In this document: positions 19,098 to 63,881 of the stretch, one piece after another | Numbering within the stretch: the first letter of the stretch is position 1 | Layout of the letters: every line of letters begins with the position of its first letter | NCBI GenBank assembly: GCA_001303125.1 | Contig: LJNE01000006.1 | Span: 9,169 to 73,168, forward strand | Reading direction: 5' to 3' | Source: Parcubacteria bacterium DG_74_1 | GTDB lineage: Bacteria; Patescibacteriota; Minisyncoccia; Minisyncoccales; DG-74-1 | Length of the DNA stretch: 64,000 nt | Made by a program: the position numbers and the translations under genes | The notes under the pieces: generated by a model | Seen by the model: the letters and a program-made list of their open reading frames with translations, nothing else | What the model was told of the DNA's origin: nothing | Databases searched by the model: none

Positions 19098-22000
19098 TTA
19101 ATTTTTTTTAATTGCTAACCATAGTTTTTGCTGGTCGACCATAATTTCTTTTTCAGCAGCAAAAACTTCTTTTTCTTTTTCTTTTCGGGCCAGATTTTTT
19201 ATCTTACCCTCTTTTAGAATAAGGTTCTTGTTCTTTTCCAGAATTTTGTTTAATCCTCCTGAACCAAAATAGTTTATTGAAACTTTATCTTCTGGTTTAA
19301 AGCGGGCAATTTTTCTCATTTCTTGGATTTGCCGAATAATTTCTCTAATGAACCCTTCTTCTCTCAATCCTGGAGTAATTCTGGTATCAAGCTCTACTTC
19401 TCCTTTAATTTTAGGATCAAAGACTATTTCTTTGACATTGACTTCTTCCTTGATTAGGCTTAATAACTCTGCTTTATTTCTCAATTCATAATTCTTAATT
19501 CTTAATTCATTTAAGGGCTGTCTAACTTTAATTTTTGCCCTAGCTCTCTCGGCTAGACTTTTAGTTACCATCTCTCTGGCTTTCTCCATTTTCTTTTCTA
19601 ATGCTCTACCAATCAATTTTTTACTCGCTTTCGGCCAATTCTCTAAATGAACAGAGTCTTGAATTTTTAATTTTGTCTGCCCTTTAGCGATTTTATCCTG
19701 TTTCGGCAGATTCTTAATTTTTTGATATATTTCTTCGGACAGAAAAGGAATAAATGGAGCGGTCAGCTTGCTTAAGGTCAAAAGTACATATTCTAAAGTA
19801 TCAGCGGCTTCGTCAAAGCGCTTACGCGATCTCCTAATATACCACAGAGAGAAATCATTAATAATAAAATCTTCAATTATTCTAGCGGCCCCAGTTATGT
19901 CGTATTTATCTAGTTTTTGAGTTGCCTCCTGGATAACTCTGTTTAATCTTGATATGACCCATCGGTCCAGTAAAGAAATGGCTTTGTACTGACCCATTTC
20001 TATATCAGAATTTGATTTAAGGTTAAATTTACTTGTCTTAATATCTGTAGCGTAAGTTCTGTAAAAGGTAAAACAATTCCAAAGAGTCAAAATGAATCTC
20101 TTAAGCGCCTGGTCAACATCTTTTTCCGAGAAAAGCTTAGAGTCGTCGGGCTGATTAATAGTGTAAAAATACCAGCGAGTGGCGTCGGCTCCGTATTTTT
20201 CAACAAGATACCAGGGATCAGTCACGTTCCCTTTCGATTTTGACATTTTTTCTCCCTTTTCATCTAAAACATGACCTACCGAAAGAACATTTTTATAGGA
20301 CGGACCCTTTCCAAGTAAAGAGGAGATAGCCAGTAAGGTATAGAACCATCCCCGAGTTTGATCAATTGCCTCTGAAATATATTCGGCCGGGAATTGAATT
20401 TTCTTATTAATCAAAGCTTTGTTCTCAAAGGGGTAGTGATACTGAGCGAAAGGCATGGCTCCGGAATCAAACCAACAGTCAATAACTTCAGGGACTCTTT
20501 CCATTGGGGCGTTACACTTTTGACAACAAAATTTTACTTCATCAATGTAAGGCCGGTGGAAATCTAATTCCATTTTTTCATTATAAGGCAGATCTTTGAA
20601 TTCAAATCTCCTGAGCTCTCCTGTTTTTATTTCTTTTTTCTTGATGATAATTCTTGTAAATCGTTTTAAATCATAGCTATAGTTCGCCTTTTCAAGTAAG
20701 GTTAGGGGTCGTTGATGGCCAATAATTAAAATGTTTTTCCCTTGATGTTTTCTATCAACTTGTTTTAAAAATTCGTACATTCTCTTCTCTATATCAGTAA
20801 AATTTTCTCCTTTCGGAGGATTGACCCGGAAACGCTTTGAATAATATTCCAAGGGAGAGAGTTCTTTTTCTTTGTCCCAAAACCTGCCAATTTCTTTCAC
20901 CGGCCTTCCGTTAAAAATACCAATATTTACTTCCCTAAGTTTTTTACTAAATTTGGGCCTTATTCCCAATTCTTTTCCGGCAATTTCAGCGGTTTGTTTT
21001 GTCCTTAAAAGATCTGACGAAAAGATCAGGTTAATTTTCTCCTTTTTTAATTTTTTGGTAGCTACTTTAACTTGTTCTTTTCCTTCTTTAGTTAAAGGAC
21101 AGGGTATTTTTTCTGGCCAACAAGCGGCAACATCTTTTAAATTTCTCAGGGATGTTCCATGTCTTAAAAGGAAATATTTGTTTTTGCTAAATTTTTGCGA
21201 CACTAAATCTTTCTTCGATCCGATTATTTCAAAACAACCACATTTTTTACATTGCCAAATGGGCAAAGGCGTCCCCCAGTATCTTTCTCTAGTTAAGGCC
21301 CAATCTTTTACTTCTTTCAGCCATTCGCCGAATCTTCCTTTTTTTAAATGGGCTGGAAGCCAGTTAGTTTTTTGATTATTTTTAATTAAATCTTTTTTGA
21401 TTTGAGTCATCCTAATAAACCAGGATTCTTTAGCGTAATAAAAAAGGGGCGAATGGCATCGCCAACAAAAAGGATAATCGTGTTCATATAATTCTCTTTT
21501 GAAAAGGATATTTCTATTTTTTAAATCCTCAATTATTAAGGGGTCAGCCTCTTTAATGAACATTCTCGCCCATTTCTTAACTCCCAACTTAAACCTCCCT
21601 TCTTCATCAACCGTTAAGAGTGTCGGCAAGTTATTCTTCTTGCCTGTTATCATGTCTTCTTCGCCAAAGGCCGGAGCTATATGAACCAACCCAGTTCCCT
21701 CTTCCAGAGAAACAAAGTCAGCCAGAATCACCCTGTAAGCCCCCTTAATAACCTCTTCACTGAAGGGATAGAGCGGTTGGTACCTTAAATCAACTAAATC
21801 TTTTCCCCTAAACTCCTTGACGACTTCTCCTTTCGCCCTGCAGGCCTTTATTCTTTCTTTGGCTAAAATTAAGTATTCTTTGTCAATTTTTACTTTAACG
21901 TAAGTAATTTCTGGGTTTACAGCTACCGCAACATTACCCGGCAACGTCCAGGGAGTAGTTGTCCAGACTAACAGAGAGGCGTTTTTGAATTCTGGATTTA

Positions 22001-22619
22001 AAACTGGAAACTTGATATAAATTGCTGGCTCTCTTATTTTTTCATAACCCAAAGCTACCTCATGACTTGATAGGCTTGTGCCACAACGAGCGCAGTAAGG
22101 GATCACCTTATAGTCTTTATATAAAAGTCCTTTTTGCCAAATTTGTTTAATAATCCACCAAACCGTTTCGATATAGTTCGGCATATAGGTAATATAAGGA
22201 TTTTCTGTGTCTAGCCAGAAGGCGATTCTTTCGGTTAAATTCTCCCAGTCTTTCTTATAATTCCAGACGGATTTCCGACATTTTTTGTTAAACTTAGCAA
22301 TTCCGTATTTTTCTATTTCTTTTTTTGATTTCAGCCCTAATTTTTTCTCAATTTCTAATTCTACCGGTAAACCGTGAGTATCCCAACCGGCCTTTCTCAA
22401 GACTTTAAAACCATGCATGGTTTTATATCGACAGATAATATCTTTAAAAACTCTAGTTAAAACATGATGGAGGCCGGGTTTGGCATTGGCTGTTGGCGGC
22501 CCTTCATAAAATACGAAATTCGGCGTCCTCTTGCGCTTCTGAATAGATTTTTCAAAAATTCTATTTCGCTGCCAAAATGTCAATATTTTCTTCTCAGTCT
22601 TGGGAAAATTTATTTCCAT
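19098..22619 (-). CDS. ileS: Isoleucyl-tRNA synthetase (type 2) carrying an internal histidine-phosphatase domain
   Basis: 1173 aa with HHVLTR-type HIGH, KMSKSKGN and a CP1 editing domain. About 200 extra residues (aa about 481-680) lie between the CKKCG zinc knuckle and DFHRPYID. They carry RHG, SSDLLRTKQTAE and IIGHQ motifs. Confidence 0.95.
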   Translation of the reverse strand: MEINFPKTEKKILTFWQRNRIFEKSIQKRKRTPNFVFYEGPPTANAKPGLHHVLTRVFKDIICRYKTMHGFKVLRKAGWDTHGLPVELEIEKKLGLKSKKEIEKYGIAKFNKKCRKSVWNYKKDWENLTERIAFWLDTENPYITYMPNYIETVWWIIKQIWQKGLLYKDYKVIPYCARCGTSLSSHEVALGYEKIREPAIYIKFPVLNPEFKNASLLVWTTTPWTLPGNVAVAVNPEITYVKVKIDKEYLILAKERIKACRAKGEVVKEFRGKDLVDLRYQPLYPFSEEVIKGAYRVILADFVSLEEGTGLVHIAPAFGEEDMITGKKNNLPTLLTVDEEGRFKLGVKKWARMFIKEADPLIIEDLKNRNILFKRELYEHDYPFCWRCHSPLFYYAKESWFIRMTQIKKDLIKNNQKTNWLPAHLKKGRFGEWLKEVKDWALTRERYWGTPLPIWQCKKCGCFEIIGSKKDLVSQKFSKNKYFLLRHGTSLRNLKDVAACWPEKIPCPLTKEGKEQVKVATKKLKKEKINLIFSSDLLRTKQTAEIAGKELGIRPKFSKKLREVNIGIFNGRPVKEIGRFWDKEKELSPLEYYSKRFRVNPPKGENFTDIEKRMYEFLKQVDRKHQGKNILIIGHQRPLTLLEKANYSYDLKRFTRIIIKKKEIKTGELRRFEFKDLPYNEKMELDFHRPYIDEVKFCCQKCNAPMERVPEVIDCWFDSGAMPFAQYHYPFENKALINKKIQFPAEYISEAIDQTRGWFYTLLAISSLLGKGPSYKNVLSVGHVLDEKGEKMSKSKGNVTDPWYLVEKYGADATRWYFYTINQPDDSKLFSEKDVDQALKRFILTLWNCFTFYRTYATDIKTSKFNLKSNSDIEMGQYKAISLLDRWVISRLNRVIQEATQKLDKYDITGAARIIEDFIINDFSLWYIRRSRKRFDEAADTLEYVLLTLSKLTAPFIPFLSEEIYQKIKNLPKQDKIAKGQTKLKIQDSVHLENWPKASKKLIGRALEKKMEKAREMVTKSLAERARAKIKVRQPLNELRIKNYELRNKAELLSLIKEEVNVKEIVFDPKIKGEVELDTRITPGLREEGFIREIIRQIQEMRKIARFKPEDKVSINYFGSGGLNKILEKNKNLILKEGKIKNLARKEKEKEVFAAEKEIMVDQQKLWLAIKKN

Positions 22620-22627
22620 GATTTTGT

Positions 22628-24169
22628 TTACATTCTCTCTGGAGCAGAAATTCCCATTAAAGCTAAAGTATTCTTTAAAACAATTTTAGTAGCCAAAATC
22701 AAAGCCAAACGAGCTTTTAACAAAGATTTGTCCTTCGCTAAAACCTTACAATCTCTGTAGAATCGATGGAAAGCAGTTGCCAACTCTGTCGAATATTGTG
22801 GTAATCGCTGCACTTGATAATCTTTAGCAGTCTCCTCAATAATCTCTGGTAATCTGATTAGCTGCTTGATCAAGTTAAACTCTGAAGGGTGAACTAACAA
22901 TTTCAGGTTGGAATCTTGGAATCGAGGATCGGAAATTTTTCTCAAGATACTACAGATTCTGGCGTGGGCGTATTGAACATAATAAACTGGATTTTTTTCT
23001 GATTGCTTTTTAGCTAACTCCAAATCAAATTCCATCTGGGTATCCAGCGACTTGGTTAGATATAAGAATCTGGCCACATCAAGGCCAACTTCATCAATTA
23101 AGTCTTCGAGGGTAACTATATTTCCTTTTCTTTTTGAGATTTTCCCCCGTTTTAGCCTGACCACCTGAGAAATTAAAATATCTAAATCTCCTTGGTATCC
23201 TAGCATTTTAGCTATCGCTTTTATTTTTGAAACATGCCCTTGGTGGTCAGCTCCCCAGATATTAATAATTTTTTTAAAACCTCTTTTAATTTTATAATCG
23301 TGGTAAGCAATATCGGTCAGGAAATACGTTGATTGGCCGTTTCTTCTGACTAAAACTTCATCTTTCTGGTTAAACCCTGAAAGGTCTAACCAGAGAGCAT
23401 TGTCTTTTTTGTAAACTAATTTTTTAGTTTCTAAAAAATCGTAGACTTTTTTTATCTTACCTTGGCGATATAGATTTTGCTCCGAAACCCACAAATCAAA
23501 TTTGATTTTCAGCTTTTCTTCTGTAAAACTCCTAATATCACCAAAAATATTTTGACCTAAGAGGTATCCTGCCTCGCTTTCTGATTTCACTTTTTTAAAG
23601 TAAGGTGCCAACCTCCGAATTACACGTTTCAAATGAGGAGTTAAATAACTTTTCCCCTGCCCTAAAGCTGTTCTTCCTAATTCCTGAATTTGAGTATTGT
23701 TTTTGGCGTCGTTAATATAATACTCTCTAAGCGCTCTGTATCCGGCCTTCTCCAAAATATTTGCTAAACAATCACCAAAAAAGGCTCCCCGGCCGTTACC
23801 AACGTGCAAAGGGCCGGTGGGATTAGCTGAAATAAATTCTACCAGAACCTTCTGGTGCTTCCCAATTTTTAATTCTCCGAACTTTTTGTCTCGTTTTAAA
23901 ATCTCCCTTACCTGTTTTTGTAAATGCTCTTTAGAAAGAAAAAAATTAATAAAACCATTCTTCGCCTCTACCCGCTCTAAAATAGTAGATTTTATCTGTT
24001 TGGCGATCTCTTGGGGATTTTCCTTGATCGCCATTGCCACATTAGTAGCGTAATCACCACAATCTTTTGCTGACGATCGGCTCACCTCAACTTCAACCTC
24101 TTTTTTATAGAGATTTTTGATTGCTCTGGCTGTCAATTTTTTGATTTTTTCTTTCATCATTTCCTTCAT
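22628..24169 (-). CDS. argS: Arginyl-tRNA synthetase
   Basis: 513 aa. SANPTGPLHVGNGR, the ADHQGH region, an MSKRKG-like loop (KISKRKGN) and a DALR anticodon-binding C-terminus. Confidence 0.95.
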   Translation of the reverse strand: MKEMMKEKIKKLTARAIKNLYKKEVEVEVSRSSAKDCGDYATNVAMAIKENPQEIAKQIKSTILERVEAKNGFINFFLSKEHLQKQVREILKRDKKFGELKIGKHQKVLVEFISANPTGPLHVGNGRGAFFGDCLANILEKAGYRALREYYINDAKNNTQIQELGRTALGQGKSYLTPHLKRVIRRLAPYFKKVKSESEAGYLLGQNIFGDIRSFTEEKLKIKFDLWVSEQNLYRQGKIKKVYDFLETKKLVYKKDNALWLDLSGFNQKDEVLVRRNGQSTYFLTDIAYHDYKIKRGFKKIINIWGADHQGHVSKIKAIAKMLGYQGDLDILISQVVRLKRGKISKRKGNIVTLEDLIDEVGLDVARFLYLTKSLDTQMEFDLELAKKQSEKNPVYYVQYAHARICSILRKISDPRFQDSNLKLLVHPSEFNLIKQLIRLPEIIEETAKDYQVQRLPQYSTELATAFHRFYRDCKVLAKDKSLLKARLALILATKIVLKNTLALMGISAPERM

Positions 24170-24199
24170 TTTATCTTAATTTTTGTTAAAATAAAAGAG

Positions 24200-24655
24200 G
24201 TGAAAGTTATAGCAGAGAACAAAAAGGCTTATTTTAATTATCAGATCCTGGAGAAATTCGAGGCAGGAGTTGCTTTGATTGGCCAAGAAGTGAAATCGAT
24301 AAAAACAAGAGGAATAAATTTGGTAGGATCATACATAATAGTTCGGAACGAAGAAATATATTGGATTGGGTCCAAAATCCCCGCTTATCAACCCAAAAAC
24401 GCGCCGTCAGATTATGATCCTGAGAGGTCGCGAAAGCTCCTTTTAAAAAAAGCAGAGATTAAATATTTAATCGGCAAATCAAAACAAAAAGGCTTGACTT
24501 TAATACCCTTAAGGGTATATACTAAAAATGGGAAGATAAAAATTGAATTTGGAATGGCCAAGGGAAAGAAAAAATTTGACAAAAGAGAGTTAATCAAAAA
24601 GCGGGAAACAGAAAGAGAGATCGAAAGAGTTTTAAAGCGGGGGCGCGTGGAGTAG
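24200..24655 (+). CDS. smpB: SsrA-binding protein SmpB
   Basis: 151 aa. IAENKKAYFNYQILEKFEAGVALIGQEVKSIK and a basic C-terminal tail. The GTG at 24200 abuts the AAGAGG Shine-Dalgarno, so the exact start is uncertain. Confidence 0.9.
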   Translation: MKVIAENKKAYFNYQILEKFEAGVALIGQEVKSIKTRGINLVGSYIIVRNEEIYWIGSKIPAYQPKNAPSDYDPERSRKLLLKKAEIKYLIGKSKQKGLTLIPLRVYTKNGKIKIEFGMAKGKKKFDKRELIKKRETEREIERVLKRGRVE

Positions 24656-24991
24656 ACGGGAAATCAGCCAAGATAGGCAAGCCGAGCAAGGTAGGCCAAC
24701 TCGTAAAACTACCTACCAAGGATATAAGCGCCAACTTATTCCAAAAACCCGCATTAGCCTACGCTTAATGCGGCATCCGGTTCGCTGATTCTCGATAGGC
24801 GGAAAATGGGTGTTATATTATCGAGATAGATAGCCCTTTTTAAAGTCTAGAAAGACTATCAAAAAAAATAGACTAAAAGCAGAAAGATTTCCGCCCAATT
24901 GATACTTTCTACTAATTGTTAAATTGGGACAAGCTTGTAGATCTATCTCTGGAAAATTTTCCGGACGCGAGCCCACAACTCGCCGCCTCCA
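24639..24991 (+). ncRNA. ssrA: tmRNA (SsrA), tag ANLFQKPALAYA
   Basis: The 5' GGGGGCG (24639-24645) pairs with CGCCTCC (24984-24990), including a G3:U wobble, and is followed by discriminator A. The 5' GGAGUAGACGGGA resembles the conserved GGAUUCGACGGGA. The T arm is GCGAG-CCCACAA-CTCGC. An internal tag ORF GCC AAC TTA TTC CAA AAA CCC GCA TTA GCC TAC GCT TAA lies at 24730-24768. The gene lies directly after smpB. CCA is not encoded. Confidence 0.85.
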
Positions 24992-25011
24992 TATAAAATC
25001 AATCTTGGAAT

Positions 25012-25521
25012 TTGCTAAAGAAGCCACTAGTCAATAACCAAATAAGGGCAAGAGAGGTAAAATTAATTGACCAAAGCGGAAAGCAGGCAGGGGTTATCCC
25101 GCTACTAGAGGCGCTCCGTATAGCTGAGGAGCGCGGTTTAGATTTAATTCAAGTGACAGAAAAAGTAGAGCCTCCAGTCTGCAAAATAATGGATTATGGA
25201 AAATATTTATATTGGTTGCAAAAGAAAGAAAAAGCGGCAAGAGGAAGCAAGGGTAGCGAATTAAAAGGAATAAGATTGGGCTTCAATATTTCTCTACATG
25301 ATTTAGAAATAAGAGCTCACCAAGCTGAAAAATTTTTAAAAAAGGGGGATAAGGTTAAGATAGAAATGGTCTTACGGGGAAGGGAAAAGGCTCTTGGAGG
25401 CTTCGCCAAAGGAAAAATCAGCCAATTTCTGGAAATTTTAGAAAAACTTGTCCCCATTAAAATTGAAAGGGAATTAAAAAGAGAGGTAAGAGGATTCACA
25501 ATGATTATCGCTAGGGCGTAA
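25012..25521 (+). CDS. infC: Translation initiation factor IF-3
   Basis: 169 aa with a TTG start (non-ATG starts are typical for infC). INNQIRAREVKLIDQSGKQ..LDLIQV..PPVCKIMDYGKY. Confidence 0.92.
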   Translation: MLKKPLVNNQIRAREVKLIDQSGKQAGVIPLLEALRIAEERGLDLIQVTEKVEPPVCKIMDYGKYLYWLQKKEKAARGSKGSELKGIRLGFNISLHDLEIRAHQAEKFLKKGDKVKIEMVLRGREKALGGFAKGKISQFLEILEKLVPIKIERELKREVRGFTMIIARA

Positions 25522-25525
25522 TTTT

Positions 25526-25705
25526 ATGAGAAAGTCAATTATCAAACGGTTCAAAATTACAAAAACTGGTAAGGTACTGCGGAAAGCAACCGGCCTTGAC
25601 CATTATCGGGTCAAAAAAACTGGAGAGGAAAAAAGAAAAAGCCGAAAATGGGTTGAGATTTCAAGGGCGGAATCAAAGAAGATAAAGAAACTTTTAGCTT
25701 CTTAG
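25526..25705 (+). CDS. rpmI: Ribosomal protein L35
   Basis: 59 codons, below the ORF-track cutoff. My translation is MRKSIIKRFKITKTGKVLRKATGLDHYRVKKTGEEKRKSRKWVEISRAESKKIKKLLAS. It lies between infC and rplT as expected. Confidence 0.85.
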   Translation: MRKSIIKRFKITKTGKVLRKATGLDHYRVKKTGEEKRKSRKWVEISRAESKKIKKLLAS

Positions 25706-25712
25706 TTTTGTT

Positions 25713-26090
25713 ATGACACGAGTAAAAAGAGGCAAAATCGCTCATAAACGAAGAAGGTATGTTTTAAAGCATGCTAAGGGTTTTCGTTGGGGAAGAAAGA
25801 AAAAATACCGCCTAGCCAAAGTGGCCCTCATGAAGGCTTGGCGCTATGCTTATCGAGACAGAAAAGCCAAAAAAAGAGATTTTAGGGCGCTTTGGCAAAC
25901 CAGGATTAATGCCGCCTGCCGGCTTTATGGAATGTCTTATAGCAAATTCGTCTACGGATTAAAGAAAAATAAAATTGGGGTTGACCGAAAGATCCTGTCT
26001 CAACTCGCCCAAAATCATCCTCAAATTTTCGAAAAAATACTTGAGAAAGTAAAAAGTCAAAAGCCTACCCCAAGAGAGACTCAAGAGTAA
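25713..26090 (+). CDS. rplT: Ribosomal protein L20
   Basis: 125 aa. MTRVKRGKIAHKRRRYVLKHAKGFRWGRKK..AYRDRKAKKRDFRALWQTRINAA. Confidence 0.95.
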   Translation: MTRVKRGKIAHKRRRYVLKHAKGFRWGRKKKYRLAKVALMKAWRYAYRDRKAKKRDFRALWQTRINAACRLYGMSYSKFVYGLKKNKIGVDRKILSQLAQNHPQIFEKILEKVKSQKPTPRETQE

Positions 26091-35730: not shown

Positions 35731-36756
35731 ATGATTGAAATTGACGGTTCATTTGGTTCCGGTGGTGGCCAGATTCTGCGTACGGCTTGTGCCCTGGCTG
35801 CGATAACTAAAAAGCCCTGCCACATATTTAATATAAGAGTTAAGCGACCAAAGCCTGGCTTGATGCCGCAACACCTTTTTGGTCTTCAGGCTCTAGCTCA
35901 GATTTGTAAAGCTAGACTAGAGGGTGACGAGCTTGAATCAAAAGAAATCAAATTTTATCCCGGAGAAATTTACAAAGACCGAATTACCATCAATATCCCA
36001 ACGGCAGGGAGCATTACTTTAATTTTGCAAGCATTAATCCCGCCAGCCCTATTTGTGCCAAGCATTACAAAAATTTCTTTTAATGGCGGGGCGACCGACA
36101 CCTTTTTCTCGCCGACGATCGATTATTTCAGATATGTTTTTTTGAAAATTATAGAAATAATGGGGGCGAAAGTTAAAATTAACGTTTCAAGAAGGGGTTA
36201 CTATCCAGAAGGTGAAGCAAAAATGGAGGCCGAAGTTTTTCCATCAGAATTAAAGAACCTTAATTTATTAAAAAGAGGGGCATTCAAAAAAATTACTGCA
36301 ATCTCCGGAGCCTCAACTTCTCTAAGAAATAAAAAGGTAGCTGAGCGTCAGTTAGCTGGAGTAAGAGAAGTTTTGGGTAAATTTAAATTACCAACTGAGG
36401 AAAAAATTGAATATTTTGATGTTTGTTGCCCGGGAAGCCAAATTTGTTTGATCGCCGAGTTTGAAAATACAACAATTGGCACCGATAATCTTGGAAGGCT
36501 TAATAAAAGAGCTGAAGATATTGGAAAAGAAGCGGCTTTAGAGCTCCTGAAAGAACAAAAATCTGGAACTTGTTTAGACAAATATTTGGCGGACCAAATT
36601 CTTCCTTATCTGGCCCTCTTGCCCGGGAAAAGCCAGGTCGCTTGTTCAGAAATTACAAAACATTCCCGAACTAACATTTGGGTAATTGAAAAATTCCTAG
36701 ATGGGGAATTCGAAATAGAAAATAGTTTAATCTCTTGGAGTCCTAAAAAAATTTAA
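35731..36756 (+). CDS. rtcA: RNA 3'-terminal phosphate cyclase
   Basis: 341 aa. IEIDGSFGSGGGQILRTACALAAITKKPCHIFNIR..RPKPGLMPQH..GGATD matches the RtcA family pattern. Confidence 0.9.
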   Translation: MIEIDGSFGSGGGQILRTACALAAITKKPCHIFNIRVKRPKPGLMPQHLFGLQALAQICKARLEGDELESKEIKFYPGEIYKDRITINIPTAGSITLILQALIPPALFVPSITKISFNGGATDTFFSPTIDYFRYVFLKIIEIMGAKVKINVSRRGYYPEGEAKMEAEVFPSELKNLNLLKRGAFKKITAISGASTSLRNKKVAERQLAGVREVLGKFKLPTEEKIEYFDVCCPGSQICLIAEFENTTIGTDNLGRLNKRAEDIGKEAALELLKEQKSGTCLDKYLADQILPYLALLPGKSQVACSEITKHSRTNIWVIEKFLDGEFEIENSLISWSPKKI

Positions 36757-43316: not shown

Positions 43317-43498
43317 ATGAGGGGGCTCAGTCTTAATAAAATCGGTTAGATCGAATTCGCTGGAGTTGGCCTTAACCAGTGACGTCTTTTAAACCTCCTT
43401 TATCAAATACTGCGGCCTTAGAGAATAACATCTCGCACCCCCTCAATTCAATAATATTCATATGAAAATTAATGTCAAGTCCTGTTCTGTTTAAATTG

Positions 43499-43570
43499 TG
43501 TCCCCACCAGGAGTCGAACCTGGATCAATGGCTCCGGAGGCCATCACTCTATCCATTGAGCTATGGGGAC
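43499..43570 (-). tRNA. tRNA-Arg (anticodon CCG)
   Basis: The 72-nt cloverleaf folded by hand is GTCCCCA-TA-GCTC-AATGGATA-GAGT-G-ATGGC-CTCCGGA-GCCAT-TGAT-CCAGG-TTCGACT-CCTGG-TGGGGAC-A. The anticodon loop CT-CCG-GA has G37. CCA is not encoded. Confidence 0.92.
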
Positions 43571-43574
43571 AAAA

Positions 43575-44267
43575 TTATTTTTTAGCGATTAAATATATAT
43601 TATAATTCTTTGTCTCTTTTCTTCTAAAAATACCTACTTCTTTTACTCTTAGCCCTGTCCCCGTTATCAATTTGTCTAATTCTCTTTTTGTGAAACAATG
43701 AATATAGCGGTCAACTTTATTCTGCCACGGCACAAGAATATCTTTAAAATCTAGTTTCGTCTTCCCTAAAATTTTTAATATAGAAAATTTAATTATTTTT
43801 CTAAAATAGCTATATTGCGGCCAAAGGTTCCAAACGGTTATGAAAAAAATTCCGCCGGGGCGCAAAACTCTTTCAGCTTCTTTTATGAATCGTCTTCTAA
43901 AATAGGTCGAGGGGATATGGTGCAAAACTGCAATACAAAAAATTTTGTCGAAATAACTATCTTGGAATGGTAAATTTAAACTATCTGCTACTAAAAATTC
44001 AGCCCCCGGATTTCTTCTTTTAGCTATTTCGATAAGCTTTTCAGAATTATCTATCCCGATATAAACGATATTTTCACCCTTAAAAAGCTCAAGTAATCTG
44101 CCATTTCCACATCCTAAATCGAGCACTTTATCTCCTTCGTTTATGTATTTACTAAATAAATTAAGCTCTGGCCAGGCTGAGTATCGACTGCTTGAAAAGT
44201 CTTCGGCAATTAGATTATAATCTTCTTGAGTTTTTCTCATTAAATATTCGGCGTATTCTCTTTCCAT
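43575..44267 (-). CDS. Trm9/ALKBH8-like class I SAM methyltransferase
   Basis: YNLIAEDFSSSRYSAWPEL..VLDLGCGNGRL..VADSLNLPFQDSYFDKIFCIAVLHHI..ERVLRPGGIFFITVWN follows the Trm9 pattern (IAxxFSxTRxxxWP, GCGNGK, IAVxHH, RVLRPGG). The start is either the ATG at 44267 (MEREYAEY) or the one at 44285. Confidence 0.7.
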   Translation of the reverse strand: MEREYAEYLMRKTQEDYNLIAEDFSSSRYSAWPELNLFSKYINEGDKVLDLGCGNGRLLELFKGENIVYIGIDNSEKLIEIAKRRNPGAEFLVADSLNLPFQDSYFDKIFCIAVLHHIPSTYFRRRFIKEAERVLRPGGIFFITVWNLWPQYSYFRKIIKFSILKILGKTKLDFKDILVPWQNKVDRYIHCFTKRELDKLITGTGLRVKEVGIFRRKETKNYNIYLIAKK

Positions 44268-50833: not shown

Positions 50834-52276
50834 TTATTCTCCCTTAATTACCGCTAATGGTTTTAATTTTACTACTTTTTTGGACAAGCCAGCGTTATGG
50901 ACTACTCCTACCACGTCGTCAACATTTTTATAGGCCATTGGGGCTTCTTCTGCTATCCCTCGAAGATTCCAACATTTAACAATAATACCTTTGGATTTTA
51001 ACTCTTTTAGCAAATTTTGTCCAGAAACCCTTCTGGTAGCTTCGTGACGAGACATGGTTCTACCCGCGCCATGATTTGTCGAGAAAAATGCGTCTCTCCC
51101 AGTATTTACTCCGACCAGGACATAGGAGGCGGTCCCCATTGAGCCGGGAATCAAAACCGGTTGGCCAACCGCTCGGTATTTCTGAGGAACCTCGGGATGA
51201 CTAGGGGGAAAGGCTCTCGTTGCCCCTTTTCTATGGAGACAAAGTTCTAATGTTTCTCCTTCAATTTCATGTTTCTCGATTTTAGCAATATTATGGGCCA
51301 CATCATAAACTGTAGTTAAGTTTGTAGATTTTTCTCCCAAAACTGACCTCCAGGCCTTCCTGACAAAGTGGGCGATTGTTTGGCGATTGGCCCAAGCATA
51401 ATTGGCTCCGGCAGCCATAGCTGATAGATATTTTTGTCCTTCAGGAGAATTAATCGGGCAGGCAGCTAACTCTCTATCGGGCAATCTTATACCGTATTTA
51501 TCCATCGTCCCCATCATTACCCTTATATAATCAGTAGCAATTTGATGACCTAGGCCCCGAGAACCAGTGTGAATCATGATAACGACCTGTTCTAAAAATA
51601 AACCGAAAATTTCAGCTGTCTTCCCGTCAAAAACTTCGTCTACTTTTTGAATTTCCAAGAAATGATTTCCGGAACCTAAGGTCCCCACCTGGTCTCTGCC
51701 CCTGTTTTTGGCATGATCGGAAACGAGAGAAGCGTCAGCTTGAGGAAGCCTCCCATTCGATTCGCAGCTCTCTAAGTCCTCCTTTTCGCCATAACCCTGT
51801 TCAACTACTCTCTGGGCCCCTCTCTCTAAAATCTTATTAATAGAAGCGGCGTCTAGCTTTATTTGCCTTCCCCGTCCTAAGCCAGAAGGAACTTCTTTTT
51901 GGATTTCTATTGCTAAGCCCTCTAAATAGTTTCTAATTTCTTCTTCTTTATAATCTGATTTTAAAAGCCTCATGCCGCAGTTAATATCATAGCCAACGCC
52001 GCCGGGCGAAATCACCCCACTCTTTATATCCATAGCGGCTACTCCGCCAATTGGGAAGCCGTACCCTTCATGCATATCCGGCATAGCCAAGCTATAATTT
52101 ACTATTCCCGGTAAAGAGGCTACATTAACCAACTGGTCAAGCGATTTATCCCGAAGGGCGCTTTCTAACATTATTTCTGAAACGTAGGCCCTAGCCGCTA
52201 CTCGCATATCTGACCTAAACCCTTTAGGAATCTCCCATAGCGAATCATTAATTTTTATAAAATCAGATTTTTTCAT
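50834..52276 (-). CDS. rtcB: RNA ligase RtcB
   Basis: 480 aa. PDMHEGYGFPIGGV, GYDINCGMR, GSGNHFLE, HTGSRGLGHQ and NHGAGR provide the metal and GMP-His motifs. Confidence 0.96.
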   Translation of the reverse strand: MKKSDFIKINDSLWEIPKGFRSDMRVAARAYVSEIMLESALRDKSLDQLVNVASLPGIVNYSLAMPDMHEGYGFPIGGVAAMDIKSGVISPGGVGYDINCGMRLLKSDYKEEEIRNYLEGLAIEIQKEVPSGLGRGRQIKLDAASINKILERGAQRVVEQGYGEKEDLESCESNGRLPQADASLVSDHAKNRGRDQVGTLGSGNHFLEIQKVDEVFDGKTAEIFGLFLEQVVIMIHTGSRGLGHQIATDYIRVMMGTMDKYGIRLPDRELAACPINSPEGQKYLSAMAAGANYAWANRQTIAHFVRKAWRSVLGEKSTNLTTVYDVAHNIAKIEKHEIEGETLELCLHRKGATRAFPPSHPEVPQKYRAVGQPVLIPGSMGTASYVLVGVNTGRDAFFSTNHGAGRTMSRHEATRRVSGQNLLKELKSKGIIVKCWNLRGIAEEAPMAYKNVDDVVGVVHNAGLSKKVVKLKPLAVIKGE

Positions 52277-52292
52277 ATTGATCTTTTATTTT

Positions 52293-52700
52293 TTAGACAT
52301 CGAAAAGGACTATCGCTTCCCAAGTTTTGTCTTTTTTTTGATGAACATCTAAATTATGATAGGTTACGGCTTTAATATCTTCCCCAAGTCTTTCTACTTT
52401 TCGCCCCGCAAGCCTAGCTTCAAGCTCGGTATCTGTAAATCTTATAAAATCTACATTACTGTATATCTCTTTATTTATTTGATTAAAATATAAAATCTCG
52501 CTTAAAAAATCAACTAACAAAGAAAGAGGGTTAAGAGACTTGATTTTAATTTTTCTTTCTGTCTTTTTATTGTCCTTAATTTCTGGTTTTTGACTCTCGC
52601 TCATTCCTAAAAGCATGTTCTGAAATAATTCTTCTTTTGTTTTCCCAAAAGCTCTAATTTTCAAATCTGCTTTATGTTCTAAAACCTCATATTTCTTCAT
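52293..52700 (-). CDS. Archease (RtcB activator)
   Basis: 135 aa. YEVLEHKADLKIRAFGKTKEELFQN..IKAVTYHNLDV matches the archease N- and C-terminal motifs. Confidence 0.85.
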   Translation of the reverse strand: MKKYEVLEHKADLKIRAFGKTKEELFQNMLLGMSESQKPEIKDNKKTERKIKIKSLNPLSLLVDFLSEILYFNQINKEIYSNVDFIRFTDTELEARLAGRKVERLGEDIKAVTYHNLDVHQKKDKTWEAIVLFDV

Positions 52701-59820: not shown

Positions 59821-61395
59821 TCAAAATTCTCTTAAAAAACCTTCAAATTCTTCTTTAATCGGCAGGGCGAGATAAAAGGTGGTCCCCTTACCTTCTTCGG
59901 ACTCAAACCAGATTCTCCCACCGTGTGCCTCAATAATATTTTTGGTAATAAACAAGCCAAGACCAGTCCCTTCGGTTGCCATTCTTATAACATTAGCTCC
60001 TCGAAAAAATTTAGCAAATACTCTTCCTTGTTGGTCTTTGGGAATACCGACCCCAGAATCTTTTACCGAAAGCTCTATTTCCTTTGGGGTATTTTTTAAG
60101 GAAACTATCACTCTCCCGCCTGCCTGAGTGTATTTTATAGCATTATCAAGAAGATTTTCAACAGCCAATCTTATTTTTTCAATATCTAGCATGGCCCGAC
60201 GAGATTTCTTTTTTGGTTTTCTAAATTCTATTTTTATTTTCTTCCTTTCAGCTTCTCCTTTACAAGAATCAACTACAAACTGAACAATAGGCTCGAATTC
60301 GGTCAGAGCTGGTTTGTAAATATATCTCCCCTCTTCAATTCTAGTTATATCCAAAAGATTATTAATTAGGGTAATCATTCTTTCGTTGGATTGATAAGTT
60401 TTTGTAATAAAATCTCTCTGCTCTTCGGTTATCTTACCAAGGTCTCCATCTAAAAGCATTTTCAGGGTCCATTTAATCGCCGAAAGAGGTGTTCTTAGTT
60501 GATGGGCGGCCAAGGAAACAAATTCGGTTTTCATTTTCTCAACCAGCTTTTCGCGGGTGATGTCATGGAGAATAATTAGATTCCCTATTCTTTCTTTTTT
60601 TCTTAATACTGGAACAGCAGACATTTCTAAAGTTAAATCTTTTTTAAGAGATACTTCTTTTCTAAAAATTTCTCCAACTTCTTCCGTCAAAACCTTTATT
60701 AGAGGTTTTAAGGTAGGAAAAGTGCTTAATTCCGAGATTGGCCTGTCGATTAAATCTCTGGCTTTGATATCAAAGAACTTTTCAGCCAAAGGGTTCATCA
60801 GAGAAAGCTTGTCTTCCTCGCCAAATACCAAAATTCCGTCAGTAAGATTAATGATGATTGCTCCAGTTTTATTTTTTTCTTCCTCTGCTTTGGCCCTTGC
60901 TTCTTCTACGTCCTCTAATATGTTAGCTAGAGCGACCTGAGTCTCTCTTAGTTCTTTTTCTCTCTTTTTAATGCCGGCTAAATTAAAAAAACCTAGAAAA
61001 TAGCCAACGATTTCTCCTTCTTCGGTTTTTCTTAAAGTAGCAGAGGCGCTTCCGAGAATTTCTTTTTTGTTCTTGGTGAAAATACTGAGTTCTTCTGCTC
61101 TGACAAACCCTTTTTCTAAGGTTTGCTTTGATATTTCCCCAAGTCTCCCTTTGTCAAAAACTTCCTCTGCAGGTTTTCCGATAATTTCCTCAAGCCTATA
61201 ACCAGATAGCTCCTCAAAAGAAGGATTAGCGTCTAATATTATTCCTATCGCGCTGATAAGACAAACCGGTAGGGGTAAAAAAGAAAATAGGTCCCTGGCA
61301 TAACTCTCGAGAGAGGCTAAGTCTTCCAAGAGAATAGAGACTTTATCTTCTTCTCCCCTCCTTATTCTTTCTTTTTTCCCCTTTGCTACTGCCAT
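59821..61395 (-). CDS. Soluble PAS-domain sensor histidine kinase
   Basis: 524 aa with no TM helix. Two PAS-like regions precede the H-box SLAAHQLRTPLSAIKW, the N-box LDNAIKYT, G1 DSGVGI and G2 GTGLGL. Confidence 0.9.
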   Translation of the reverse strand: MAVAKGKKERIRRGEEDKVSILLEDLASLESYARDLFSFLPLPVCLISAIGIILDANPSFEELSGYRLEEIIGKPAEEVFDKGRLGEISKQTLEKGFVRAEELSIFTKNKKEILGSASATLRKTEEGEIVGYFLGFFNLAGIKKREKELRETQVALANILEDVEEARAKAEEEKNKTGAIIINLTDGILVFGEEDKLSLMNPLAEKFFDIKARDLIDRPISELSTFPTLKPLIKVLTEEVGEIFRKEVSLKKDLTLEMSAVPVLRKKERIGNLIILHDITREKLVEKMKTEFVSLAAHQLRTPLSAIKWTLKMLLDGDLGKITEEQRDFITKTYQSNERMITLINNLLDITRIEEGRYIYKPALTEFEPIVQFVVDSCKGEAERKKIKIEFRKPKKKSRRAMLDIEKIRLAVENLLDNAIKYTQAGGRVIVSLKNTPKEIELSVKDSGVGIPKDQQGRVFAKFFRGANVIRMATEGTGLGLFITKNIIEAHGGRIWFESEEGKGTTFYLALPIKEEFEGFLREF

Positions 61396-61991
61396 TTTAT
61401 CAGATACTCGTGATATTCATCCCCCTTAAAAGGACACTTTCTTTCCTGGCAGGTTATTTGGGGGCTTTTAATTATCAGAGAAAAAAGACCAGACATATAA
61501 CCTCTTAGAAAAATGCAGTAAATAGGATGAAGATTAAAATCTTTCAGCTGTAAAACGGCATATTTTTTCTCCTTATTGAATTCAATCGGAACCAATCTCC
61601 CTATGGTCCAGTGTTTTCTCCAAATTTTCTGACCTTCTCGTAAAAAAACTTTTGGAACTGAGGAGATGTATTTGATAAAAAATTTGGCAACCAAAGAAAC
61701 TCTGGTTCCAAAAAAACCAATCTCCTCAATCTTTTTATCATCAAAATCAAAAACTTTTTTAATAGCCAGAAGAGAAAGAGCTCTCAATCCTACCGGGTAA
61801 TAGCCGAACGTTTCAATCTCTTTGTATTTTATTGGGTAACCCAATTCCCCCAGCTCCTCTTCTACCTTCTTAAGCCCCTCTTCTCCTTTGTTTTTTAAAA
61901 TATAATCACGGTCAATTGTAAGGGTCACCCCCCTTGTTTCTCCTTTAACCTCCATTAATTTTTGGACCTCTTCTTTGGCTATTCCTTTCAT
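61386..61991 (-). CDS. H-NOX/V4R/DUF2378-like putative ligand-binding protein, paralog 1 (kinase-proximal)
   Basis: 201 aa. It shares YP, WRKH, HPIYC, GY and C-terminal ERKCPFKGDEYHEYLIKW with the three upstream paralogs. Its stop overlaps the kinase start (ATGGCAGTAG). Confidence 0.55.
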   Translation of the reverse strand: MKGIAKEEVQKLMEVKGETRGVTLTIDRDYILKNKGEEGLKKVEEELGELGYPIKYKEIETFGYYPVGLRALSLLAIKKVFDFDDKKIEEIGFFGTRVSLVAKFFIKYISSVPKVFLREGQKIWRKHWTIGRLVPIEFNKEKKYAVLQLKDFNLHPIYCIFLRGYMSGLFSLIIKSPQITCQERKCPFKGDEYHEYLIKWQ

Positions 61992-62041
61992 TTTATTGCT
62001 AGAAAGCTTTAATTGACATTTTTCGTCTTTTAATTTTCATT

Positions 62042-62659
62042 TTACTCCCACCTTATTACGTATTCATGATAGGGGCCTCCCTTAAAAGTACATTTTGTTT
62101 CTTCAACCGAAAATTTTTCACTTCTTTGTATGTATTGAGTTAATCGAAGGAAGTAGCCAGCTAAAAAGACGCAAATCACCGGATGAATTTTGAAGTTTCT
62201 AACTTGGAAGGTAACCCGTTTTTCTTTGTCGTTTGGATAAACTTCCAATTCTCCTATCGTATAATGTTTTTTCCAATATATATAGCCTAGCTTAAATACC
62301 GATATGGGCGCCGCCTTCAGAAAACGTAAATATTTTATTAACGTCTTTACGACAGGGGAATACTCAGATACAGAGTAGCCCAGATTAAAAATTTCTTTGT
62401 CTCCCCAGTTAAAAACTTCTTTTATCGCCAATAAATGACTTGCATATAAACCGATTGGGTACCATTGAGCAGGCTTTATTCTCTCGTACTTAATCGGGTA
62501 TCCCCAATTCTTTAGTTTTTCTTCTAGAGACTTTACTGCTTTTTCTCCTTTTTTCGCTTTTATATACTCCAAATGAATTAAAAATGTCGCTCCCGCTACC
62601 TGCCCTGGAACTCCTTTTAATTTTTCAATTTCCTGTTCAGTAACCTGACCTTTGGGCAT
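62042..62659 (-). CDS. H-NOX/V4R/DUF2378-like putative ligand-binding protein, paralog 2
   Basis: 205 aa with WYP, WKKH, HPVIC, GY and ETKCTFKGGPYHEYVIRW. Confidence 0.55.
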   Translation of the reverse strand: MPKGQVTEQEIEKLKGVPGQVAGATFLIHLEYIKAKKGEKAVKSLEEKLKNWGYPIKYERIKPAQWYPIGLYASHLLAIKEVFNWGDKEIFNLGYSVSEYSPVVKTLIKYLRFLKAAPISVFKLGYIYWKKHYTIGELEVYPNDKEKRVTFQVRNFKIHPVICVFLAGYFLRLTQYIQRSEKFSVEETKCTFKGGPYHEYVIRWE

Positions 62660-62662
62660 ATT

Positions 62663-63268
62663 CTAGTCCCACGTTATTACATATTCGTTATAAAGATCCC
62701 CCTTAAAAACACATTTTGTTTCTTTAATTGAAATTTTCTCAGCTTTAACAACATACTCAGTAATTCCTTGATAATAACCAGCGTGATAAACGCATATTAT
62801 GGGGTGAAATTTGAAATCTTTCTCACGTAAAACTATATATTTCTTTTCTTCATCAAATTGAACAACCTCAAGCTTCCCGCAGTCTAAATGTTTTCTCCAA
62901 TAATTAGGGACCTCTGCCAGAAATTTTTCTAAAGAAACGAAATATCTCATCAGTATTTTGGCAATGAAATTGTATTTCGGGGCTGACCTTCCCATCTCGA
63001 AAATGTCTTTTTCAGTCCAATTGAACAAGGTCTTAGCCGTTAGAATAATTAAGGTACTAAGAGATTCAGGATACCATTCTCCTGCCTTAAATTTTTCAAA
63101 ATTTACCGGATACCCCAACTCGGTTATTTTTTTCTCAACGGCGCCTACCCCCCCTTTTCCCTCTCTATTTTGAATGAAAATAGCATGGGACTGCAATATT
63201 GCTCCCCTAACGTTCCCTCTAACTCTCATTAATTTTTGAATTTCTTCTTTGGTTATTTCTTCTGCCAT
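62663..63268 (-). CDS. H-NOX/V4R/DUF2378-like putative ligand-binding protein, paralog 3
   Basis: 201 aa with WYP, WRKH, HPIIC, GY and ETKCVFKGDLYNEYVITW. Confidence 0.55.
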   Translation of the reverse strand: MAEEITKEEIQKLMRVRGNVRGAILQSHAIFIQNREGKGGVGAVEKKITELGYPVNFEKFKAGEWYPESLSTLIILTAKTLFNWTEKDIFEMGRSAPKYNFIAKILMRYFVSLEKFLAEVPNYWRKHLDCGKLEVVQFDEEKKYIVLREKDFKFHPIICVYHAGYYQGITEYVVKAEKISIKETKCVFKGDLYNEYVITWD

Positions 63269-63272
63269 ATTT

Positions 63273-63881
63273 TTATTCCCACTTTAATAAATACTCATGG
63301 TATTTATCTCCCTTAAAGGGGCATTTTGTTTCTCGGCACGTTATTTTATGGGACTTTATCAACATTTGCAAAATCCCTGAAAAATACCCGCAAAGATAAA
63401 CAGAGCAGTATAAAGGGTGGAGGTCAAAATCTTTCAACCTCAAAAGGCCATACCTCTTCTCTTCGTTTAAGTCAACTGGGATTAATGTCCCCTTAGTCCA
63501 ATGTTTTTGCCAAATTCTAGGGGCTTCTTTGAAAAAGACCCTTTCTACGGAAAGGAAGTACCTTACAAATAACTTAATAATTAATGACTTTTTAGTGGCC
63601 ACAAGCCCCATCTCTTTAATTTTTTCATCGTCAAAATTAAAAGTTTCCTTGATGGTCATTAAAGAAAGAATTCTTAATCCTACTGGGTAAAAATCCATAC
63701 TTTTAATCTCTTGATAATTTAAAGGATGGCCCAGTCTTCCTAGTTCTTCTTCTACTTTCTTCAGCCCTTCTTTTCCTTTTTCTGCCAAGACATATTCAGC
63801 GTCGGTCTTTAAAACTACCCCCCTCACCTGGCCCTCAATTTCCATCAGTTTTTTAACTTCTTCTTTTTTCATTTCTTCCAT
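63273..63881 (-). CDS. H-NOX/V4R/DUF2378-like putative ligand-binding protein, paralog 4 (operon-first)
   Basis: 202 aa with FYP, WQKH, HPLYC, GY and ETKCPFKGDKYHEYLLKW. It is most similar to paralog 1; by eye, more than half of positions are identical. Confidence 0.55.
   Translation of the reverse strand: MEEMKKEEVKKLMEIEGQVRGVVLKTDAEYVLAEKGKEGLKKVEEELGRLGHPLNYQEIKSMDFYPVGLRILSLMTIKETFNFDDEKIKEMGLVATKKSLIIKLFVRYFLSVERVFFKEAPRIWQKHWTKGTLIPVDLNEEKRYGLLRLKDFDLHPLYCSVYLCGYFSGILQMLIKSHKITCRETKCPFKGDKYHEYLLKWE

Follow-up and report, generated by a model that had tools for sequence, protein, structure and literature searches.

In the insect endosymbiont Candidatus Carsonella ruddii, the gene for SmpB reportedly overlaps ssrA, the gene of its partner transfer-messenger RNA (tmRNA), as Mao and colleagues are said to have described in 2009. 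Hudson, Lau and Williams (2014) proposed a feedback for this bacterium, in which 5' maturation of the tmRNA would deprive the smpB message of its stop codon and turn it into a substrate of its own product (PMC4131195). They found this layout nowhere else in 2031 complete genomes, and estimated that overlaps between a coding sequence and a same-strand tRNA or tmRNA gene affect about 1 in 15000 coding sequences (PMC4131195); their survey predates the Parcubacteria genomes compared here. Our own searches of the literature on tmRNA or smpB overlap in bacteria of the candidate phyla radiation (Patescibacteria) turned up nothing relevant. Here we describe a stretch of 64,000 nucleotides from Parcubacteria bacterium DG_74_1 (hereafter the window), in which the smpB coding sequence (24200-24655, + strand) runs into a one-piece tmRNA gene (ssrA, 24639-24991, + strand) with which it shares 17 nt, and we follow this junction through related genomes.

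The smpB reading frame, as given in the list of open reading frames (ORFs), encodes 151 aa between a GTG start and a TAG stop at 24653-24655, and its + strand ends in ...AAG CGG GGG CGC GTG GAG TAG. The product matches the Pfam SmpB family (PF01668) over residues 4-146 with 172 bits (cutoff 27) and is 99-100% identical to the SmpB recorded for Parcubacteria bacterium DG_74_1. Solved SmpB chains align with it to within a few residues of their C-termini, and the tail including the DKR motif is present. The overlap (24639-24655, + strand) starts with the second base of the Arg147 codon (CGG) and continues through codons 148-151 (G R V E) to the end of the TAG. The same bases are nucleotides 1-17 of the tmRNA, i.e. 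its acceptor 5' strand and a D-loop-like region, so that the smpB stop codon coincides with tmRNA nt 15-17. As in Carsonella, both genes thus lie on the same strand and the stop codon of smpB falls within the mature tmRNA sequence. The expected cleavage site of ribonuclease P (RNase P), which would generate the mature tmRNA 5' end given by the covariance model, is the C|G step at 24638|24639 (+ strand), 14 nt 5' of the first base of the smpB stop codon; a cut at this position would leave an smpB mRNA that ends in ...AAG C and has no stop codon.

The tmRNA is identified by the Rfam model RF00023, with nhmmer and Rfam homologues in relatives. Applied to 24400-25200 with permissive filters, the model is matched over its full length (1-374) at 24639-24994, with 100 bits (gathering score 47), an E value of 8.6e-40 and a high posterior probability at the 5' end of the RNA. 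The acceptor stem has 7 bp, formed by GGGGGCG (24639-24645) and CGCCTCC (24984-24990), with a G1:C72 pair and G24641:U24988 in the position of G3:U70; with its discriminator A24991 it resembles that of tRNA-Ala. CCA is not encoded in the window; among 139 tmRNAs of relatives it is encoded in 15. The tag reading frame lies at 24730-24768 (+ strand; GCC AAC TTA TTC CAA AAA CCC GCA TTA GCC TAC GCT TAA) and specifies ANLFQKPALAYA before the stop, with an Ala resume codon and a hydrophobic end. ARAGORN calls the identical tag and stop in two relatives (L065, L073), and near-identical ones occur in 22 others. These results uphold what the first-pass annotation had read from the letters, namely a tmRNA 5' end inside smpB, the acceptor pairing with its G3:U70 and the distance of 14 nt between RNase P site and stop codon: all of its coordinates were correct, and the tmRNA prediction that it had named as a check places the 5' end at 24639 and not downstream of 24655.

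The T-arm of this tmRNA is unusual. In the covariance-model alignment it occupies 24967-24983 (+ strand), with the stem GCGAG (24967-24971) / CTCGC (24979-24983) and the loop CCCACAA (24972-24978), which departs from the near-universal UUCRANY; the assignment as tmRNA is not decided by this loop. Among the 139 relatives, 40 have a 7-nt T-loop starting with UUC, 41 have other 7-nt loops (AGCAAAA, GGCAGUA and CGCAACU among them) and 56 parse as 6-nt loops. ARAGORN called no tmRNA in the window and found only 24 of 81 tmRNAs in related loci (30%), which is probably due to the aberrant T-loops and not to absence of the gene. In gathering mode over all 64 kb Rfam likewise missed the tmRNA and reported a tRNA-Arg only, owing to the speed filters of that mode.

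To see how widespread the overlap is, 80 metagenome loci and 80 loci from GTDB species representatives were compared with the window, and the junction could be called in 157 of 161 loci. The smpB stop was located by tblastn and in-frame extension, and G1 of the tmRNA from the pairing of acceptor and T-arm, with nhmmer support. A strict rule for the tmRNA end (5-bp T stem, 7-nt loop) failed on 75 loci; it was relaxed and then validated against the Rfam model, whose 5' ends were identical to the pairing-based calls in 20 of 20 loci spanning every class (82-149 bits). Most of the closest GTDB species representatives carry the name Candidatus Nealsonbacteria, Parcubacteria or Paceibacteria, and a few are Gribaldobacteria or Wildermuthbacteria; some submitter labels, such as 'Saccharibacteria' or 'Humimicrobiaceae', look like defaults.

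The comparison of related genomes, which had been suggested as a further check, revealed that smpB and ssrA overlap in 85 of the 157 junctions (54%), which come from Candidatus Nealsonbacteria and allied Parcubacteria; among the GTDB species representatives the count is 43 of 79. The overlaps fall into six registers. In the most frequent one, of 8 nt (63 loci), the junction reads (A/C)GG GGN UGA, i.e. Arg-Gly-stop read from a tmRNA 5' end GGGGnUGA. The 17-nt register of the window is found in 11 loci (besides the window in L001-L005, L081-L083, L113 and L117), and overlaps of 18 nt (7 loci), 21 nt (1 locus), 29 nt (2 loci) and 30 nt (1 locus) make up the remainder. Across these relatives the overlap supplies the last 2-10 residues of SmpB. 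Where it is missing, the two genes are separated by 0-10 nt (29 loci), 11-50 nt (19 loci) or more than 50 nt (24 loci). Since its register recurs in ten related loci and so many junctions overlap, the 17-nt overlap in the window is real and not a product of chance.

An error would be the simplest alternative: a wrong tmRNA 5' end, a wrong smpB stop caused by misassembly or a frameshift, or a stop codon that is recoded. The failure of both ARAGORN and Rfam in gathering mode to call the tmRNA would fit such an artefact. However, the covariance model is matched over its full length with high posterior probability at the 5' end, and acceptor positions 5 and 6 vary on both strands across relatives (GGGGGCG/CGCCTCC, GGGGATG/CATCTCC, GGGGACG/CGTCTCC). 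Junctions are also identical across independent assemblies, and long ORFs under translation table 11 cover about 91% of the window. We reject an assembly or recoding artefact on these grounds and regard an error of any of these kinds as extremely improbable. The gene callers behind public assemblies, too, independently end smpB 8 nt inside tmRNAs called by ARAGORN.

Carsonella and these Parcubacteria are alike in that a same-strand smpB reading frame enters the tmRNA gene, that 5' maturation of the tmRNA is expected to leave a non-stop smpB mRNA, and that genomes are strongly reduced with the overlap in only some members of the lineage. They differ in the state of the protein. The SmpB of Carsonella has lost its C-terminal tail and central loop, and its extension into ssrA adds short, apparently random residues to it, whereas the Parcubacteria retain a full-length SmpB. 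Carsonella, moreover, lives inside insects, while the Parcubacteria lineage is free-living or episymbiotic, and in the latter most junctions overlap, across dozens of species and in six registers, and a conserved promoter is evident inside smpB (see below).

The distribution of the overlap among relatives points to frequent change. Of the close relatives 46% lack it, among them all three complete Nealsonbacteria genomes in the sample (L086, L107 and L130, with gaps of 1-22 nt), and on a neighbour-joining tree of SmpB the two states are scattered, with 33 binary changes by parsimony; we use this tree only qualitatively, because it is weak and rests on 144 residues. About ten non-overlapping relatives (e.g. 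L015, L023, L038, L053, L069, L074, L100, L123 and L158) keep a C-terminus in ...RG, followed by TAA, 0-5 nt and the GGGG of the tmRNA, from which it follows that overlapping and non-overlapping states can be interconverted by small indels with the protein unchanged. This suggests repeated switching between overlapping and abutting states through small indels, and the microhomology between AGG GGN and the GGGG of the tmRNA might aid such events. The protein, for its part, appears to follow the RNA. The overlapped residues in the 17-nt class change with the tmRNA (RVE, CLE, RLV, RLE), and the five residues that a cut would remove in the window (RGRVE) come after the Pfam domain and form the very tip of the tail in comparison with solved SmpBs. 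Because its residues track the tmRNA and lie outside that domain, the C-terminal end of SmpB can be regarded as a passenger of the RNA.

Whether the smpB message reaches the tmRNA depends on where transcription starts and ends, and two candidate promoters are present. The first, P1, is a predicted extended -10 element, TGtTAAAAT (24184-24192, + strand), that ends 7 nt before the smpB GTG. Elements of the form TGnTAnnnT occur within 30 nt upstream of the smpB start in 96 of 150 distinct loci and end 6-7 nt before it in 81 of them, and no Shine-Dalgarno sequence was found at a usable distance before the smpB start. The spacing of P1 to the start codon predicts a leaderless or nearly leaderless mRNA, and the smpB message is probably leaderless.

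The second, P2, lies within smpB (24494-24523, + strand) and resembles a sigma-70 promoter, with the -35 hexamer TTGACT (24494-24499), an 18-nt spacer and the -10 hexamer TATACT (24518-24523), which together match 10 of 12 consensus positions. Transcription is predicted to start at about 24530, which would give the pre-tmRNA a leader of about 108 nt for removal by RNase P. P2 is found at the same codons in nearly all relatives, and 74 of 79 overlapping loci have it 111-120 nt before G1. In a codon alignment of 153 distinct smpB genes with 77 conserved columns, a codon entropy of at most 0.1 bit was reached only at Leu99, Tyr107 and Thr108. Leu99 is TTG in 153 of 153 genes, although TTG accounts for 25% of Leu codons gene-wide and other invariant Leu columns use 3-5 codons; Tyr107 is TAT in 151 of 153 (gene-wide 75%) and Thr108 is ACT in 137 of 138 (gene-wide 52%). 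Thr100 (ACT in 131 of 153; gene-wide 52%) and Gly98 (GGC in 106 of 141; gene-wide 24%) were scored in the same way. As the codons of the hexamers are frozen at synonymous sites, the comparison supports P2 as a conserved promoter inside smpB that is kept at the DNA level beyond coding need. A promoter starting exactly at G1, which would dispense with RNase P, was considered and rejected (-10-like matches in 15 of 79 loci, too near G1).

Downstream of ssrA the + strand continues with infC (encoding IF3, 25012-25521), rpmI (25526-25705) and rplT (25713-26090), all assigned by Pfam; infC starts 20 nt after the tmRNA 3' end. In 134 of 139 loci infC is likewise encoded downstream on that strand, usually at a distance of 2-40 nt from the end of the tmRNA, and argS lies divergently (- strand) upstream of smpB in the window and in 129 loci. 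A terminator scan of 23900-25300 found no terminator-like site, including between ssrA and infC. There is no room for a promoter between these two genes, so P2 probably drives infC-rpmI-rplT as well as ssrA. Given the closeness of infC and the lack of a terminator, 3' maturation of the tmRNA probably also forms the 5' end of the infC-rpmI-rplT message. The release of tRNAs by RNase P from transcripts shared with protein genes is familiar, for example, from the thrU-tyrU-glyT-thrT-tufB operon of E. coli. There, too, a tRNA-like RNA is excised from a mixed operon and its processing sets the ends of neighbouring mRNAs, but the tRNAs do not overlap a coding sequence.

The first-pass annotation had treated a common transcript and a separate ssrA promoter within smpB as alternatives. 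The promoter has found comparative support in the frozen hexamers, and both appear to hold at once, because a complete smpB ORF requires tmRNA nt 1-17 and any full-length SmpB message consequently extends into ssrA. That the 5' end of tmRNA is matured by RNase P is established (PMC3985003), and tmRNA-SmpB acts preferentially on ribosomes whose mRNA extends little or not at all past the decoding site (PMC3929946). As no terminator-like site is present, transcripts that read through would yield a non-stop smpB mRNA once RNase P acts, and the arrangement of the genes makes this a strong inference.

The overlap might nevertheless have no practical effect if the two RNAs are made separately. In that case tmRNA would come from P2 only, and the few transcripts from P1 would be translated co-transcriptionally and then degraded, or would end inside ssrA before the acceptor stem is complete, so that non-stop smpB mRNA arises rarely or never. 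The strong conservation of P2 agrees with this, as does the order of events along the transcript. RNA polymerase reaches the 3' strand of the acceptor about 350 nt past the smpB stop, which leaves time for ribosomes to terminate, and a ribosome terminating at 24653-24655 would presumably cover and unfold the acceptor 5' strand. Yet there is no terminator-like site in or after ssrA, infC begins within 20 nt and apparently depends on read-through, and any P1 transcript that reaches 24991 would be a substrate of RNase P. We consider a lack of practical effect quite unlikely.

The explanation we favour, with moderate confidence, is that the overlap is a tolerated by-product of genome compaction that entails at most a mild self-limitation of SmpB and is not a selected circuit. 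Under this explanation smpB, ssrA and infC-rpmI-rplT would be a single unit of closely spaced genes that point the same way, in a genome that is very compact as a whole. Loss of the spacer between smpB and ssrA would have left smpB to draw five final codons and a stop from nucleotides 1-17 of the tmRNA. From P1 a probably leaderless smpB message would run on through ssrA, which has no terminator, while P2 would supply most of the tmRNA precursor and probably also the message of the infC operon. Cleavage at 24638|24639 would strip the smpB stop codon from read-through transcripts of P1. Ribosomes that have finished before the cut would have made full-length SmpB, whereas those still on the message would reach its 3' end and require rescue by tmRNA-SmpB, whereby SmpB(1-146) would receive the tag (A)ANLFQKPALAYA and be destined for degradation. 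Such an overlap would arise easily as the junction is compacted, and would be tolerated since the rescue system clears its own message.

Several features of the window and its relatives agree with compaction. The window has 38% G+C; across its 54 pairs of ORFs on the same strand the median gap is 8 nt, and 11 of these pairs (about 20%) overlap. A further 29 junctions of smpB and ssrA have gaps of only 0-10 nt, and the tRNA-Arg(CCG) gene at 43570..43498 (- strand) starts 4 nt past the stop (43575-43577) of a same-strand methyltransferase ORF, whose mRNA 3' end would likewise be set by RNase P. It is because the overlap is evolutionarily labile and the genome very compact that a by-product appears to us the better explanation than a selected circuit.

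Some points weigh against this explanation. The promoters, the co-transcription of the two genes and the RNase P cut in read-through RNA are predictions from the DNA, as are the stalling, tagging and degradation that would follow, and RNase P genes were not found within the window. The smpB-ssrA overlap (54%) is also more frequent than overlap between coding sequences in the window, an excess that could hint at specific tolerance or selection. Pairs of coding sequences are the one baseline for this comparison, as the ~0.7 Mb of fetched DNA contain a single tRNA (four related contigs are syntenic, tRNA-free neighbourhoods). Finally, a tree of SmpB only is weak, which makes the counts of gains and losses uncertain.

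The same excess, and the fact that overlap is the majority state in a large clade, would fit a selected autoregulatory circuit, in which maturation of the tmRNA deprives the smpB mRNA of its stop, makes it a substrate of the SmpB it encodes and thereby keeps SmpB in balance with tmRNA. With this geometry a non-stop message is difficult to escape, smpB is unique in that its own product deals with such a message, and a truncated SmpB(1-146) would retain the whole Pfam domain. Moreover, arfA of E. coli shows that control by way of an obligatory non-stop mRNA can work, as reportedly established in 2011 by Garza-Sanchez and by Chadani. The arfA mRNA is made non-stop by RNase III or by early termination, and trans-translation controls ArfA (PMC8012679). 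Both arfA and smpB encode rescue factors, and in both a housekeeping endoribonuclease severs the mRNA before its stop codon (an expectation in the case of smpB), which exposes the product to tagging by tmRNA. In arfA, however, the cut is made at an RNase III hairpin or replaced by early termination, and experiments have demonstrated that the truncated, untagged protein is the active form, whereas in the present case RNase P would do the cutting, on the partner RNA, with SmpB itself as the predicted target. A circuit of this kind could work like that of ArfA if an alternative rescue factor released untagged, active SmpB(1-146) when trans-translation is limiting.

Several points weigh against a selected circuit. 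If there is no alternative rescue factor, it is ambiguous in which direction the feedback would act, as low levels of tmRNA-SmpB would trap ribosomes and not release SmpB, and within the 64-kb window no such factor and no ORF for ArfB, RNase R or RnpA was found. Moreover, P2 uncouples most tmRNA synthesis from the smpB mRNA, and the absence of the overlap from 46% of close relatives (L086, L107 and L130 included), its six registers and its scattered distribution suggest that it is often gained and lost instead of being retained. Selection for the feedback that the first-pass annotation had envisaged is thus unsupported, and the idea itself is not new, having been put forward for Carsonella (PMC4131195). 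We regard the circuit as unlikely. A more specific version, a self-targeting homeostat selected in Nealsonbacteria-like Parcubacteria, seems rather unlikely: here P2 would supply tmRNA independently, every smpB message would be destroyed by maturation of the tmRNA that it carries, the output of SmpB would be set by a race between translation and RNase P and trimmed by the capacity for trans-translation, and the 8-nt GGGGnUGA register would be a repeatedly evolved solution and no accident of compaction.

The surroundings of the junction hold some further observations. In one relative (L071, 1108-1372, - strand) a sub-threshold match to the T-box leader (70 bits, gathering score 93, E 3e-13) sits upstream of the divergent argS. 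A class I aminoacyl-tRNA synthetase of the IleRS type (1173 aa, 19098-22619, - strand; tRNA-synt_1, Anticodon_1 and DUF5915) has a histidine-phosphatase domain (His_Phos_1) at residues 483-661, an insertion that splits the catalytic domain; it is kept in L161-L164 and L167-L170 and absent from a 945-aa orthologue in L165. A complete RNA repair and ligation set is formed by RtcA (RNA 3'-phosphate cyclase), the ligase RtcB and archease (ORFs 35731-36756, + strand, 50834-52276, - strand, and 52293-52700, - strand), with RtcB adjoining archease. Four tandem ORFs of 201-205 aa without a Pfam match (61386-63881, - strand) lie beside a histidine kinase and two single-domain response regulators; they may encode paralogous pilin-like proteins, since N_methyl is present in a neighbour at the related locus L165.

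In published work smpB extends into ssrA in Carsonella only, and there alongside a decayed SmpB. What is new here is the layout as the majority state of a large Parcubacteria clade, with an intact SmpB tail, several registers and a conserved internal promoter. This corrects the belief that the arrangement is unique to Carsonella and extends it to a group of environmentally widespread, ultra-small bacteria. With ARAGORN recovering 30% of the tmRNAs in related loci and the default filters of Rfam missing the one in the window, the overlap would be invisible to standard annotation. The six registers, together with close relatives whose genes are separated by 0-10 nt or more, constitute natural variants with which regulation of trans-translation by self-targeting of the smpB mRNA could be told from mere tolerance of it, and the junction is short enough to be rebuilt in E. 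coli. The outcome that we would expect is a tolerated side effect of genome compaction, with regulation of SmpB through its own partner RNA as a proposal.

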